A stretch of DNA of 64,000 nt from a virus (IMGVR_UViG_3300029288_000065:1-64000); one strand, 5' to 3'; shown: positions 1-4,555, counted from the stretch's first letter. Notes: generated from the sequence alone by a model not told the origin. A program made the numbers and translations.

Positions 1-48
1 CGGCAGACACAAATCTGATGATGTGGGTTCGAATCCCACTGGGAGGCC
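1..48 (+). tRNA. 3' part of a tRNA truncated by the window edge (identity unresolved)
   Basis: T-arm GTGGG-TTCGAAT-CCCAC followed by an acceptor-like strand TGGGAGG. Confidence 0.45.
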
Positions 49-127
49 TGATATTCACGTCTTCTGGCGGGGGCCACCAAAATCCCCTTTGGAAACAAGG
101 AGGATTCTGGAGGCCTCAATGCCGGGG

Positions 128-200
128 ATGCCCATAGCTCAATTGGCAGAGCACCGGCCCTCTAAGCCGGAGGTTGCGGGTTCGAGCCCCGTTGGGATGA
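128..200 (+). tRNA. tRNA-Arg(TCT), degenerate
   Basis: TAGCTCAATTGGCAGAGC D-arm; CCGGC-CCTCTAA-GCCGG anticodon arm (C33); GGTTCGAG T-loop; imperfect acceptor stem, no CCA. Confidence 0.7.
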
Positions 201-242
201 TATTTTTATGGCTGCCACAGGGAGAGAATTGAATCTCTTCTG

Positions 243-315
243 CGTGGGGAAGTCCCTTGGGAAAGACGCCAGGTTGAAAACCTGGAGATGCTGGTTCGAG
301 TCCAGCCCCGGCCAC
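243..315 (+). tRNA. tRNA-Phe(GAA), degenerate acceptor stem
   Basis: CCAGG-TTGAAAA-CCTGG anticodon arm; GCTGG-TTCGAGT-CCAGC T-arm; mismatched acceptor stem. Confidence 0.65.
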
Positions 316-347
316 AATCGACGGCTGGGTCGTCCAATGAGGGCTGT

Positions 348-422
348 AGGGGCATAGTATAATTGGTAGAACATCTCTTTCATACGGAGAAGATCCGAGT
401 TCGATTCTCGGTGCCCCTACCA
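348..422 (+). tRNA. tRNA-Met/Ile2(CAT)
   Basis: AGGGGCA/TGCCCCT acceptor, TCTCT-TTCATAC-GGAGA anticodon arm, TTCGA T-loop, encoded CCA. Confidence 0.88.
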
Positions 423-437
423 AAAGGGTTCTCGTAT

Positions 438-527
438 AGAAGGGCGTCGGAGATTGGCGAGCCGAGCTGATTTGCTAAATCAGTGATCTGAAAGGATCTG
501 AGGGTTCGATTCCCTCCCCTTCTGCCA
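438..527 (+). tRNA. tRNA-Ser(GCT)
   Basis: AGAAGGG/CCCTTCT acceptor, CTGAT-TTGCTAA-ATCAG, long variable arm, GCCA end. Confidence 0.9.
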
Positions 528-564
528 GTTTTGTTCAGCAAAAATAAAACCAGAGGAGAATAAA

Positions 565-939
565 ATGCCAATTTGCTCGCGCTGTCATCAAGAAAAAGCT
601 GAATCAGAATTTAGAATGCGTAGAGAGAAGAATCGAATATCTACTTTCGAATCATATTGTAAAAGATGCATGAGAATTTACGCGACTATACGCACAAATA
701 AACGAAAAATAAAAGCTATTGAATATTTGGGTGGGAAATGTAAAGAATGTGGAATTATAGTTCATCCAGCCATTTTCCAATTTCATCATCGTGACCCAAA
801 TACTAAAGAGGCGTCCTGGAATAGAAAATTAAGATATTATCCATGGGAAAAGATTCGTAGAGAATTGGATAAATGTGACTTATTATGTGGGAATTGTCAT
901 CTTGCTAAAAATATTATTGCAGAATATTGGACTGTTTAA
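565..939 (+). CDS. HNH homing endonuclease
   Basis: CxxC pairs, YLGGKCKECG, FQFHHRDP...K, ELDKCDLLCGNCH; SD GAGGAG. Confidence 0.85.
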   Translation: MPICSRCHQEKAESEFRMRREKNRISTFESYCKRCMRIYATIRTNKRKIKAIEYLGGKCKECGIIVHPAIFQFHHRDPNTKEASWNRKLRYYPWEKIRRELDKCDLLCGNCHLAKNIIAEYWTV

Positions 940-990
940 ACAAGTGGGCTCGCAAGGGTCCTGTGGGTCCGACTCCCACCGCTTCCGCCA
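938..990 (+). pseudogene. orphan 3' half of a tRNA-Ser-like gene
   Basis: variable arm GGGCTC-GCAA-GGGTCC, T-arm GTGGG-TCCGACT-CCCAC, CGCTTCC-GCCA end; no matching 5' half upstream. Confidence 0.65.
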
Positions 991-1014
991 TTTACCATTT
1001 CTCAAGAATAGATA

Positions 1015-1101
1015 GGAGAGTAAACTGATCGGGCGATCAGCACTCGTTGGAAGCGAGTTGGCACTGAAAGGTGTGAGGATCGAGACCTCTACTCTCCGCC
1101 A
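1015..1101 (+). tRNA. non-canonical (8/4) tRNA-Ser(GGA)
   Basis: 8-bp acceptor GGAGAGTA/TACTCTCC, 6-bp D-stem with tetraloop, ACTCG-TTGGAAG-CGAGT, 4-bp T-stem GAGG-ATCGAGA-CCTC, GCCA. Confidence 0.85.
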
Positions 1102-1499
1102 TGAAATTCACCGAAATATTAGCCAGAGAAGTCCAAAAACACCTTGACAATTACTACAGAATATATCCTATATCAGAGATTAAAAATAAAGTCTATTTTA
1201 AAGTACAAATATGGATGGATTCAAAAAGCAAAACAGGTCTACGAAAAAGAGATAATATACGAACACTCTGTTACCTGGAATTAAAAGAACAACAATTATT
1301 GGTATATTATATTGATATTGTAATGGGAGATTATGGACCAGATTTCACAAGCGTCACTCCTGATTTAATCTGGGATCTCGGAAATCCAGAATGGAGTCCA
1401 GAGATTGTTGCTGAATATATTAGGAAGGTTGGTGATATGTTTGTTCCAAAGCGTACTGGTGTTTGTTTGGGTGATTTGTTGAAAGATATTGGAGCATGA
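1101..1499 (+). CDS. hypothetical protein (WDLGNP-motif family)
   Basis: 132-aa ORF between two tRNA-Ser genes; WDLGNPEWSPEIVAEYI motif shared with other small ORFs. Confidence 0.55.
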   Translation: MKFTEILAREVQKHLDNYYRIYPISEIKNKVYFKVQIWMDSKSKTGLRKRDNIRTLCYLELKEQQLLVYYIDIVMGDYGPDFTSVTPDLIWDLGNPEWSPEIVAEYIRKVGDMFVPKRTGVCLGDLLKDIGA

Positions 1500-1577
1500 A
1501 CCGAAAGGGATTTCGGCACTGTTTCGAACACAGTTGGCACTGAAAGGTGTGAGGATCGAGACCTCCATGCTCCGCCA
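1491..1577 (+). tRNA. non-canonical (8/4) tRNA-Ser(CGA)
   Basis: GGAGCATG/CATGCTCC acceptor, CCGAAA-GGGA-TTTCGG D-arm, ACTGT-TTCGAAC-ACAGT, same V/T arms as 1015-1101. Confidence 0.85.
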
Positions 1578-1652
1578 GGGCACGTAGTTTAGTGGTAGAA
1601 CATCTGGATCACAACCAGAAGATTGCAGGTCCGATTCCTGCCGTGCCCACCA
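1578..1652 (+). tRNA. tRNA-Val(CAC)
   Basis: GGGCACG/CGTGCCC acceptor, TCTGG-ATCACAA-CCAGA, ACCA end. Confidence 0.88.
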
Positions 1653-1723
1653 TTCAAAATTAGGTTGGATGAGATAGTAACATGAAAGGGGCGGGTTTAA
1701 TCCCCGCCTCTTACTTGGTTTGA

Positions 1724-1800
1724 CGCGGGTGGCATAGGGCTGGTGCTCTGGTGAGGCCCATAACCTTACAACGGGTGTTCGATTCACCCGCCCGCAACCA
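1724..1800 (+). tRNA. initiator tRNA-fMet(CAT)
   Basis: C1:A72 mismatch (CGCGGGT/GCCCGCA), TGAGG-CCCATAA-CCTTA, TTCGA T-loop, ACCA. Confidence 0.8.
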
Positions 1801-1815
1801 TTTGGAGATCTAAAA

Positions 1816-2007
1816 ATGCCAGCAAAATCAGAAAAACAAGCAACAGCAGCAAGAATAGCACTAGCAGTAAAACAAGGAAAGACCAAGGCCAAGCCAGGTA
1901 GTCCATCTGCAAAAATGGCTAAGAGTATGAGTGAGAAGGAAATCCATCACTTCACTCACGAGAGTAAGCTACCGAGAGTTATGCTTGGTTTTGGATTTAA
2001 GAAATAA
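1816..2007 (+). CDS. small basic protein, DUF3008-like
   Basis: MPAKSEKQ..AA.IAL..K.G...MAKSMSEKE pattern; SD GGAG. Confidence 0.65.
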   Translation: MPAKSEKQATAARIALAVKQGKTKAKPGSPSAKMAKSMSEKEIHHFTHESKLPRVMLGFGFKK

Positions 2008-2494
2008 GTCTTCTTTTTAATTCTGTTTTCCAGACATCTGCATTCGACTTCTTATCAAAAGCCCATATGTAATCCAACATAGTGACAATATCCTTACCAA
2101 CATTTAAAGGATTTAGATTGTGTAATGATATTTCATGATTTAAATCATAGGGGAATGATGGATGTAATATCATTACATCATCTTTGATGTATAATTCCAC
2201 TACAGTATTGTCGAAATCCATTTTCCGGATGTTTGCGAATTTTCCTACGAAAGGATGATATTTTTCACACATTCCTTCTCCGAAAAAGATTCTGTGTATT
2301 GGAGGTTTGAAAGAGTAATGTACTTTATAGACGAAGATCGAATCTGGGCAATTTATAGTACCATATGGTTCGAGAATTCCAATGACCAAATTCTCTTGGT
2401 CTTCATTTATGATGTCCCAATCTGGTATTCGTATGTTACCAATTTTTGGCCAGACACGTTCTATATTCATGCTGAACCAATATCGCCACCACAC
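1997..2494 (-). CDS. hypothetical protein (likely start 2470)
   Basis: ORF overlapping the upstream minus-strand gene. Confidence 0.5.
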   Translation of the reverse strand: MWWRYWFSMNIERVWPKIGNIRIPDWDIINEDQENLVIGILEPYGTINCPDSIFVYKVHYSFKPPIHRIFFGEGMCEKYHPFVGKFANIRKMDFDNTVVELYIKDDVMILHPSFPYDLNHEISLHNLNPLNVGKDIVTMLDYIWAFDKKSNADVWKTELKRRLIS

Positions 2495-2781
2495 TTTGGT
2501 GAGAATTGCAGGAACGTAATCCTATCATCTTTTTTCTCTAAATACCCAGATTGTATCCAACATTCAACTAGAGCATGGGCACCTTCTATTGATTCATTCC
2601 AATGTAATGATTTGATATATGTGTCAGACCATATACTTACATTATGAGCGAAAATAATTTCGGTTACTGGTGAACAGGCTTTTTCAATGAAATAATTATG
2701 TCTTCTGAAATACCACCAACAAAACTCTTCCCAAAGTATTTTCGGGTCAACAGAAGGATCACTGATGTCGATATTTTTCAT
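2467..2781 (-). CDS. hypothetical protein (DPxxDP family)
   Basis: MKNIDISDPSVDPKIL..F..W resembles the ORFs at 25685 and 58765. Confidence 0.6.
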   Translation of the reverse strand: MKNIDISDPSVDPKILWEEFCWWYFRRHNYFIEKACSPVTEIIFAHNVSIWSDTYIKSLHWNESIEGAHALVECWIQSGYLEKKDDRITFLQFSPKCGGDIGSA

Positions 2782-2785
2782 GGGT

Positions 2786-2862
2786 GTCCCCATGGTGTAA
2801 TTGGCGATCACGCCGCACTCTCTATGCGGAGGTTCCGGGTTCAACTCCCGGTGGGGATACCA
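2786..2862 (+). tRNA. tRNA-Glu(CTC)
   Basis: GTCCCCA/TGGGGAT acceptor, CCGCA-CTCTCTA-TGCGG, GGTTCAAC T-loop, ACCA. Confidence 0.85.
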
Positions 2863-3028
2863 CTTTCTCTTCAGGCCATTTTACTTTTCCACCAAGGCTC
2901 TCAATGAAGAGTATATGATCAGCTATGACAAAGCGAATTTTTCTGTGATCACCTGGTACGCCCGCTTTTTTCATGAATGCTTCTGCTTTTTTGACGATGT
3001 GTTCAGGAATCTCTGACGTGTTTGCCAT
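2822..3028 (-). CDS. hypothetical protein
   Basis: SD GGAGG before ATG; 3' end overlaps tRNA-Glu in antisense. Confidence 0.5.
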   Translation of the reverse strand: MANTSEIPEHIVKKAEAFMKKAGVPGDHRKIRFVIADHILFIESLGGKVKWPEEKVVSPPGVEPGTSA

Positions 3029-3097
3029 TTGTTACCTCCATGGATTTAAATACAGGAATAGGTAGGCGCAAAGATAAAGTTGGGAGGAGCGTCTGCC

Positions 3098-3739
3098 ATG
3101 GTAAAATACACAAAAGAAATGTTAGTTGAACATGTAAACAAGGTCACTTCTATGGCTGGTTTAATGAGAAATCTTGGGATTAGTTATATAAGTGGAGGTA
3201 TGCATGCTCATCTGAAAAAGAGAATAAAACAAGAAAATATTGATATTTCCCATTGGTCTGGTTTTGGTTGGAATCGTGGTAAATCAATTCCACGTAAAGG
3301 ATTAAATAAAATCTTAATTAAAAGATCTGGTTCTTATAAGGAACATACTTATATCCTGCTTAGGGCTTTACTCCAATCTGGTATCGAATATAAGTGTTCA
3401 GAATGTGGAATTAAAGAATGGAGAGGAAAGTTTGTTAGATTGCAGATTGAGCATAAGAATGGTGATAACATGGATAACAGAAAGGAAAATTTGGTACTTC
3501 TCTGTCCGAATTGTCATTCACAGACTGTGACCTACGCGGTAATGAAGTCGAAACGCGGGTGTGGCGGAACTGGCAGACGCAACGGACTCAGTTACGGGTC
3601 GCTCACTGAGAAATTAGTGAGTAGTATGCTCCCAAATTCGGTGAACCCTTTACTGGCAACGCCGAGCCAAGCCTCGGAAGAGGAAGGTGTAGAGACTAGA
3701 CGGGAGCCACCTAAGGCGAGAGCTATGGTGAAGGCATAG
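3098..3739 (+). CDS. HNH endonuclease whose ORF runs through tRNA-Leu exon 1 and its intron
   Basis: YKCSECG..LQIEHKNGDNMDNRKENLVLLCPNCHSQT; SD GGAGG; first in-frame stop lies inside the intron. Confidence 0.85.
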   Translation: MVKYTKEMLVEHVNKVTSMAGLMRNLGISYISGGMHAHLKKRIKQENIDISHWSGFGWNRGKSIPRKGLNKILIKRSGSYKEHTYILLRALLQSGIEYKCSECGIKEWRGKFVRLQIEHKNGDNMDNRKENLVLLCPNCHSQTVTYAVMKSKRGCGGTGRRNGLSYGSLTEKLVSSMLPNSVNPLLATPSQASEEEGVETRREPPKARAMVKA

Positions 3740-3836
3740 TCCAGACCACGAACCGAAAGGGCGGCGAAAGCCGAAGTGGTATGTAAAATCCGTTGAGGCC
3801 AAATACCTCATGTGGGTTCGAGTCCCACCACCCGCA
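3555..3836 (+). tRNA. tRNA-Leu(TAA) split by a group I intron (exons 3555-3588 and 3784-3836)
   Basis: GCGGGTG/CACCCGC acceptor, GGCGGAACTGGCAGACGC D-arm; joining exons gives ACGGA-CT|TAAAA-TCCGT; long V arm; TTCGAGT T-loop. Confidence 0.88.
3589..3783 (+). ncRNA. group I self-splicing intron (IC3-like), 195 nt
   Basis: P1 GACU/GGUC with U.G at the splice site; P AAATTCGGTGAA, Q AACGCCGAGCCAA, R GTAGAGACTAGACGG, S AAGGCATAGTCC; terminal G. Confidence 0.88.
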
Positions 3837-3865
3837 TTTTTCTTGGCTCATTTTTGGAGATAGTT

Positions 3866-4009
3866 ATGCTTAGCGATTTGTTTGTTTTCTGGGAAGATTT
3901 AAAGCGAGATCCAGGCGTACAAGAAGCAAAGAGTGGTTGTCTTACGGCAATTATGCTGGCTGTACTTATAGCGGGTTTTGTTCATCTTATTTTGTATTTT
4001 ACAAAATAA
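3866..4009 (+). CDS. small membrane protein
   Basis: SD GGAG; C-terminal hydrophobic helix. Confidence 0.5.
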   Translation: MLSDLFVFWEDLKRDPGVQEAKSGCLTAIMLAVLIAGFVHLILYFTK

Positions 4010-4018
4010 GGAGAAAAC

Positions 4019-4555
4019 ATGGTCATCTTCATGTGTGGTTTCCCATTCTCAGGTAAAACTCATATTCTGGAACTTCTAAAGAAAGAATACCCAGATACAG
4101 ATGTAATCGACCCAAAATCTTATAGGGATGAAGAATATCCAAAGTTGGATGAAGATGGGAAGCGTGAATTTAATATTTCTGCGTGGCAGTGTTCTCTCGA
4201 ATTATTACAGAAGACTATAGAAAATACCAAACCTGATGATTTGATAGCGTATGATACAGCTTGTGCGTCTGATCAGATGCTTGATTATATGGATTTTGCT
4301 AAGAAATATAAGCATAAGGTTTTGGTTGTTTATGTGAATGCGAAGATTGATTTGTGTGAAAAGAGAGCTGGGAAGGAATGGTTGTCCCAAGAAGTTGTCC
4401 AGAAATACAAAACTAATTTCAAAAATAACTTACTGAAATTTAGGAAGATGGCAGATGATTTTGTAATAATAGATAATAATGGAGATCAGGTAACTTTAGA
4501 AAAGGCGGTAGAAAAGATCGATGCCTGTGGAATTCATAAATCCAAATCGTCATGA
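4019..4555 (+). CDS. P-loop kinase (AAA_33/polynucleotide-kinase-like)
   Basis: GFPFSGKT Walker A, IAYDT, lid CEKRA. Confidence 0.75.
   Translation: MVIFMCGFPFSGKTHILELLKKEYPDTDVIDPKSYRDEEYPKLDEDGKREFNISAWQCSLELLQKTIENTKPDDLIAYDTACASDQMLDYMDFAKKYKHKVLVVYVNAKIDLCEKRAGKEWLSQEVVQKYKTNFKNNLLKFRKMADDFVIIDNNGDQVTLEKAVEKIDACGIHKSKSS

Follow-up and report, generated by a model that had tools for sequence, protein, structure and literature searches.

Transfer RNAs whose acceptor and T stems are divided 8/4 or 9/3 were described by Mukai et al. (2017; Nucleic Acids Res 45:2776, PMC5389517). For serine, that paper places the (8/4) type in bacteriophages, proteobacteria and rumen Clostridia, in phage tRNA clusters sometimes next to (8/4) tRNA-His, and it links the phage (8/4) tRNA-Ser to alpha-proteobacteria (PMC5389517). 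In E. coli, according to the same source, 8/4 allo-tRNAs are efficient at inserting serine.

The window analyzed here comprises the opening 64,000 nucleotides of a linear IMG/VR virus record, which is 233,959 bp long and has an estimated completeness of 89%. We found that two of its genes are, by structural criteria, (8/4) tRNA-Ser, a kind already published and specifically from phage tRNA clusters (PMC5389517), as the initial annotation had stated for 8/4 allo-tRNAs and tRNA-Ser in general. The likeness to the (8/4) tRNA-Ser of Mukai et al. covers the 8-bp acceptor and 4-bp T-stem, the long D-stem with its tetraloop, the long V-arm, G73/U73, the serine anticodons and the location in phage tRNA clusters. 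Nothing fundamental differs at the level of the published text description, which was the basis of the comparison. Unlike some of the published phage clusters, this one has no 8/4 tRNA-His that we could see beside the two window genes. The two genes are added members of a published fold and not a new concept; what may go beyond the distribution given in that paper is the breadth found here, which takes in at least 118 viral contigs and cultured phages of Xanthomonadales, Rhodobacterales and Flavobacteriia.

Two serine tRNA genes and their fold

The two genes, each 87 nt long, are laid out as follows. Bit scores refer to R1, a covariance model built from the two window copies with the 8/4 structure.

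1015-1101, plus strand: (8/4) tRNA-Ser(GGA), reading UCC/UCU; minimum free energy (MFE) fold, R1 111.5 bits
1015-1022/1090-1097: its acceptor stem, followed by the AA linker at 1023-1024
1025-1040: its D-arm
1042-1058: its anticodon arm, with the anticodon at 1049-1051
1061-1074: its V-arm
1076-1089: its T-arm, followed by G73 at 1098 and CCA at 1099-1101
1491-1577, plus strand: (8/4) tRNA-Ser(CGA), reading UCG; MFE fold, R1 111.8 bits; layout as in tRNA-Ser(GGA), with the anticodon at 1525-1527, G73 at 1574 and CCA at 1575-1577
1056-1089 and 1532-1565, plus strand: identical 34-nt block (columns 42-75 of alignment A1)

Both copies have an 8-bp acceptor stem (GGAGAGTA/TACTCTCC in the GGA copy, GGAGCATG/CATGCTCC in the CGA copy), directly followed by an AA linker, and a 6-bp D-stem with a tetraloop (CTGATC-GGGC-GATCAG and CCGAAA-GGGA-TTTCGG, respectively). 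The anticodon stem has 5 bp, with the loops TTGGAAG (anticodon GGA) and TTCGAAC (anticodon CGA); the 5-bp V-arm has a GAAA loop; the 4-bp T-stem GAGG/CCTC encloses the T-loop ATCGAGA; and the discriminator G73 is followed by an encoded CCA. Position 8 is A in the GGA copy and G in the CGA copy, and is paired in each. The unconstrained MFE structure (RNAfold) is the exact 8/4 cloverleaf for both copies, with z-scores against shuffled sequences of -3.45 (GGA copy) and -2.75 (CGA copy). All of the stem and loop features initially claimed for these genes, including G73, the long V-arm and a T-loop without TTC, are present. A Y20 in the D-loop is the condition for naming an 8/4 tRNA-Ser an allo-tRNA (PMC5389517); the last D-loop base is C in the GGA copy and A in the CGA copy, and to equate it with position 20 is an assumption.

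The two copies differ at 19 positions, 16 of which form eight stem pairs in which both partners have changed. The acceptor stem and the D-stem account for three of these pairs each and the anticodon stem for two; no pair is broken. The covariation between the copies that had been noted at the outset is therefore complete (8/8 differing stem pairs compensated). The three remaining differences are a D-loop base, N34 and N38. Likewise confirmed was the identical 34-nt block, which runs from the final three anticodon-stem bases through the V-arm and the T-arm. Since the T-arm is near-invariant across the family described below, only the V-arm within this block points to a recent common origin or gene conversion; on a rough estimate that discounts the T-arm, the identical V-arm is only suggestive of common origin.

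The description of the genes as tRNA-Sec-shaped held for part of the molecule. Bacterial tRNA-Sec (selC; RF01852), for which serylation by SerRS is the first step, resembles the window genes in its 8-bp acceptor stem, its D-arm with 6 bp and a 4-nt loop, its long V-arm and its G73. These features recall allo-tRNAs as well, and they would suit a recoding tRNA, either of the selenocysteine type or a missense or nonsense suppressor allo-tRNA. The rest of the molecule departs from tRNA-Sec: the acceptor/T branch is 12 bp (8/4) rather than 13 bp (8/5), the anticodon stem has 5 bp whereas that of tRNA-Sec is lengthened, the T-loop has A54, and the anticodons are the sense anticodons GGA and CGA, in contrast to the UCA of tRNA-Sec, which reads UGA. 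At E<=10, neither the Rfam tRNA model (RF00005) nor the tRNA-Sec model (RF01852) matched either window copy. Serine sense anticodons are found in the window genes and in all family members analyzed, searches of the 234-kb contig for phage-encoded SerRS, SelA and SelB found none, and nothing in the ORF lengths points to a reassigned stop codon. We accordingly give a recoding function next to no likelihood.

Canonical class II tRNA-Ser, of which the tRNA-Ser(GCU) at 438-527 is an example, shares with the two genes the V-arm, G73, G2:C71, A3:U70 and the serine anticodons. It differs in its 7/5 division, in having U8-N9 in place of the AA linker, a D-stem of 3-4 bp with a large loop in place of the 6-bp stem with a tetraloop, and T54/Y60 in place of A54/A60; RF00005, as noted, fails to recognize the window genes. 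A54 is unusual in elongator tRNAs. TrmA methylates U54, and judging from the sequence the presence of A54 would make this methylation impossible and remove the TrmA substrate. The T-loop of eukaryotic initiator tRNA also has A54 and A60, as does the AUCGAGA loop here; that tRNA belongs to another domain and has another role, the window genes show no further initiator feature, and the likeness may be coincidence.

Relatives and covariation

Relatives of the two genes were gathered by an IMG/VR pattern search for the T-arm plus the 3' end of the acceptor, which returned at least 118 contigs, many of them 100-430 kb long. A first search with a 15-mer from the T-arm had returned mostly chance matches, the only real ones being in contigs L017 and L063. 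A BLAST search of the 801-nt region against cultured phages gave no match; relatives in cultured phages were recovered with a single tRNA as query at a relaxed E-value. Within the phage contig itself, R1 matched the two window genes only. The initial annotation had proposed that a covariance model be built and run against phage genomes, and with R1 such a search gave 228 matches at E<1e-3, distributed over 100 sources, most of which are viral contigs. The best 150 of these 228, from 91 sources, were fitted to the structure of the model (alignment A2), and the 121 distinct sequences among them were analyzed. Because the loci were gathered through a T-arm pattern, T-loop frequencies in this set are biased; the acceptor-stem columns are unaffected.

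We found that 96.2% of the cells assigned to 8/4 pairs in A2 are paired (121 distinct sequences of the best 150 of 228), compared with 67.4% in shuffles, and that sliding the partners leaves at most 49.4% of cells paired. Double changes occur in 27 of the 28 pairs, and all six D-stem pairs covary. The eighth acceptor pair, the one at issue between the 8/4 and 7/5 folds, is UA in 45 of the 121 sequences, GC in 43, AU in 22, CG in 8, GU in 1, UG in 1 and unpaired in 1. Since the acceptor and T-stem columns contain no gaps, we take covariation to have established the 8/4 fold. The initial reading of the genes as an alternative scaffold under selection is borne out, as a statement about structure, by this family covariation, which lies far beyond chance.

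The same data bear on whether the genes could be ordinary 7/5 tRNA-Ser with one mismatched pair in the T-stem. ARAGORN reports 1015-1101 as tRNA-Ser(gga) and draws it in this way, with a T:T mismatch; in tRNA-Ser(CGA) the corresponding pair would be T:C, so that, as had been pointed out initially, each copy needs a mismatch to fold canonically. In formal terms, 53 of 118 family members could adopt either fold. The 7/5 pair, however, fails to form in 68 of 121 sequences. It would join the base before the T-stem, which is nearly always U, to the 3' base that belongs to the eighth acceptor pair in the 8/4 fold. At the eighth acceptor pair, compensated changes run through all four Watson-Crick types. 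The 7/5 fold would also demand a non-U at position 8 and a 3-nt linker. In a separate count anchored on the 3' end, 63 sequences fit 8/4 only, 1 fits 7/5 only and 53 fit both. We consider a mismatched 7/5 fold highly improbable.

Beyond the fold, the family has further features in common. The anticodons of the 121 distinct sequences (best 150 of 228) are CGA (40), GGA (37), UGA (24) and GCU (20), and nothing else. G2:C71 is present in 121/121 and A3:U70 in 117/121, and pairs 4-8 are free to change, with compensation. Among 118 family members, 96 have G73 as discriminator and 20 have U73. SerRS recognizes its tRNAs by the long variable arm, by G73 and by the leading acceptor pairs, and ignores the anticodon. 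The invariant G2:C71, A3:U70 and discriminator would look like the pattern expected of a SerRS identity set. The D-loop GG is retained in 118/121 and U55, C56 and A58 in 110/121, which makes an ordinary elbow plausible. Across family members, A54 accompanies A60, and T54 accompanies T or C at position 60.

Taken as they stand in the sequence, the window genes are very probably functional elongator tRNA-Ser on the (8/4) scaffold, one with anticodon GGA for UCY codons and one with CGA for UCG, charged by the SerRS of the host. In such a scheme, the genes would be transcribed inside the phage tRNA array and matured to the encoded CCA end, and the host SerRS would charge the products. The acceptor stem has gained one base pair at the expense of the T-stem; the coaxial acceptor/T helix thereby retains its normal 12 bp, the length required by EF-Tu and the ribosome, and because this branch is preserved EF-Tu would be able to deliver the charged tRNAs. 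The 8/4 tRNAs would then add to or replace the host serine tRNA pool in infection. SerRS must also take tRNA-Sec, with its 8-bp acceptor, and we infer that serine tRNAs are for this reason unusually free to take the 8/4 geometry.

The tRNA array and the serine set of the phage

The source of the window is a jumbo phage, a distant T4-like myovirus. Genes for sheath, baseplate, portal, terminase and major head protein are found in the contig, the nearest capsid protein (40% identical) is from an uncultured 595-kb phage, and the genomic G+C content is 39.6%. Positions 1-3900 of the window hold a plus-strand tRNA array, which is broken by two HNH endonuclease genes. Besides the two 8/4 genes, the following features were located in the array, between the two genes or elsewhere in the contig:

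438-527, plus strand: canonical 7/5 tRNA-Ser(GCU) (ARAGORN drawing), T-loop TTCGATT
565-939: HNH gene, directly before the tRNA 3' half
946-990, plus strand: Ser-like 7/5 tRNA of class II, 3' half only, with no matching 5' half
1101-1499, plus strand: 132-aa ORF (ORF listing), occupying the spacer between the two 8/4 tRNAs
1724-1800, plus strand: tRNA with anticodon CAU, an initiator-like C1-A72 mismatch and an odd D-arm
3555-3836, plus strand: tRNA-Leu(UAA) with a 195-nt intron (ARAGORN intron mode)
124863-124938, complement, beyond the window: tRNA with the amber-reading anticodon CUA (ARAGORN 'tRNA-Pyl')

A near-identical ENA contig (L330) continues the array upstream of the window start, with about eight further tRNAs. 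At L330:1661-1749 it carries a third (8/4) tRNA-Ser, with anticodon UGA and T-loop TGCAAGT, which ARAGORN missed. The tRNA-Ser(GCU) at 438-527 is the contrast to the two 8/4 genes inside the same cluster: scored on its L330 copy (2338-2427), it forms 12 pairs as 7/5 and 11 as 8/4. The serine set of this phage consists of 8/4 tRNAs with anticodons UGA, GGA and CGA and a 7/5 tRNA with GCU, and covers all six serine codons. That UCN readers are 8/4 and AGY readers 7/5 is true in this phage; as a general rule it fails across the family. Serine codon use is 24.8% TCT, 22.7% TCA, 22.3% AGT, 12.0% TCC, 9.6% AGC and 8.6% TCG, and since the rarest codon, UCG, has a CGA tRNA of its own, simple codon supply is no obvious explanation of the set.

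The three 8/4 paralogues have the V-stem GGCAC/GGTGT in common, and the two window copies are mutual nearest relatives, with 78.6% identity as against at most 73% to any other sequence. The similarity fits duplication with a change of anticodon, or gene conversion, within the lineage.

The neighborhood of the genes leaves room for another reading, that they are decaying or non-translational tRNA-like elements such as homing-endonuclease leftovers or recombination sites. The cluster contains two HNH genes and the tRNA remnant at 946-990, in which a 6-bp V-arm with a GCAA loop is followed by the T-arm GTGGG-TCCGACT-CCCAC, the acceptor strand CGCTTCC, G73 and CCA; this half-tRNA is probably left over from an endonuclease-driven rearrangement. 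Inactive allo-tRNA-like sequences have been linked to mobile elements (Mukai et al. 2017, PMC5389517), and both 8/4 tRNAs are overlapped by an ORFan gene, the 132-aa ORF. The two genes themselves, however, are perfect cloverleaves with compensated stem differences, an encoded CCA and intact elbow and identity elements, and their copies from two independent assemblies have equal R1 scores. Decay thus appears very improbable, and we retain the reading as elongator tRNAs.

The ATG of the 132-aa ORF uses the final A of the CCA of tRNA-Ser(GGA), and its TGA stop codon (1497-1499) coincides with bases 7-9 of tRNA-Ser(CGA). Its codon-usage score is 0.279, where true genes score 0.308 +/- 0.142 and off-frames -0.676, so that by codon usage it looks like a real gene. 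It has no Pfam or PHROG family and no phage tblastn match, and a search of 5.8 billion proteins returned no homologue other than itself. If RNase P cut at the 5' end of tRNA-Ser(CGA), the message of this ORF would lose its stop codon.

Three other tRNAs of the contig have peculiarities of their own. The CAU tRNA at 1724-1800 is scored by Rfam, weakly, as tRNA-Sec rather than as tRNA, and the intron-bearing tRNA-Leu(UAA) at 3555-3836 adjoins an HNH gene at 3080-3739. For the CUA tRNA, stop-codon reassignment would be an explanation; it finds no support, since of the three stops TAG is the one whose translation as sense extends ORFs least.

Distribution, annotation and possible role of the scaffold

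The 8/4 tRNA-Ser is common in large phages, occurring in at least 118 IMG/VR contigs and often as a complete serine set. Family loci are large tRNA arrays in which 1052 other tRNAs, for all amino acids, were counted. Several contigs (e.g., L109, L111 and L105) have all four isoacceptors on the 8/4 scaffold. Among cultured phages, Phaeobacter phage MD18 and Xanthomonas phage BUDD have four members each (GGA, GCU, UGA and CGA), and there are three in Stenotrophomonas phage DLP_6 and a single one in Cellulophaga phage phi10:1; the records with 8/4 genes are L332 (MT270409.1), L334 (ON758385.1), L333 (KU682439.2) and L335 (KC821618.1). In bacterial genomes, 21 of the first 100 pattern loci listed carry clusters of one to four genes, mostly in Alphaproteobacteria and Myxococcota among those listed and with serine anticodons only. 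About four fifths of the first 100 bacterial pattern matches listed had no model match and hence are not tRNAs.

We found that these genes are largely missing from annotation, as had been anticipated for standard finders. Of the 150 members in the alignment ARAGORN picks up 33, which amounts to a miss rate of 78%, and it did not report tRNA-Ser(CGA) at 1491-1577 at any setting tried, lowered thresholds included. Rfam, which misses both window copies, was also run on 12 related loci, and no 8/4 gene was among its best 150 tRNA matches there (52 lower ones followed). The 8/4 genes of the cultured phages are absent from the GenBank feature tables although the adjoining tRNAs are annotated. Given that the scaffold is common and that 78% of its members are missed by ARAGORN, phage tRNA surveys will undercount tRNA-Ser. 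This undercount touches arguments that phages 'avoid' certain serine tRNAs, and intergenic 'gaps' within tRNA arrays may be misread.

Two annotated features in the cultured phages deserve mention. The 8/4 gene at L332:1359-1445 in MD18 overlaps the end of an annotated hypothetical CDS. In DLP_6, a 92-nt gene at L333:1097-1188 is annotated as tRNA-Ile-TAT; it is a long tRNA with no R1 match. TAT is the commonest anticodon among the allo-tRNAs surveyed by Mukai et al. (2017, PMC5389517).

Why serine tRNAs should take this form invites an adaptive answer, and the initial annotation had suggested that host tRNA nucleases or modification enzymes might be evaded. In a version of this idea, the 8/4 body and the A54/A60 T-loop would hide phage tRNA-Ser from host nucleases or from a phage factor that destroys host tRNA-Ser. 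For VapC toxins of M. tuberculosis, cleavage of UCN-reading tRNA-Ser inside the anticodon is reported (PMC10264068, citing Winther 2016), and against cuts inside the anticodon a mutation of the anticodon loop gives no escape (PMC10264068). The complete 8/4 serine sets of L109, L111, L105, MD18 and BUDD agree with such a role, as do the loss of the TrmA substrate through A54 and, in this phage, the division between three 8/4 UCN readers and a 7/5 AGY reader. If counter-defense were the cause, phages would be reshaping a tRNA whose serine anticodon cannot mutate away from nucleases, and a nuclease-resistant, TrmA-blind serine set would sustain translation once host tRNA-Ser is destroyed.

Other observations speak against this answer. 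The division between UCN and AGY readers is lost across the family, in which GCU is 8/4 in about 29 of 38 cases, and loci with 8/4 genes also hold 7/5 GGA and UGA copies and one 7/5 CGA copy. Other amino acids in the same arrays are served by ordinary tRNAs, the scaffold is present in bacterial genome contigs too, and the anticodon stem-loop, which is the target of anticodon nucleases, is ordinary in the window genes. A search of the contig found neither a nuclease gene nor a clear tRNA-repair gene: the only RNA-ligase matches are below threshold and fall in a 654-aa ORF near 179 kb, and a P-loop kinase at 4019-4555 has no clear identity as a polynucleotide kinase. We consider counter-defense unlikely, and favor the view that the 8/4 shape may be a tolerated trait inherited within phage tRNA arrays rather than an adaptation. 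The cultured phage-host pairs make the question of why serine tRNAs (and, in the data of Mukai et al., histidine tRNAs) adopt 8/4 directly testable.

Three related viral contigs carry further RNA genes beside their 8/4 arrays (L116:5521-5849, L167:388-797 and L111:274-711). These are an RNase P RNA of bacterial class A (146.8 bits) and two-piece tmRNAs of alpha-proteobacterial type, which suggest alpha-proteobacterial hosts and unusually complete RNA toolkits.
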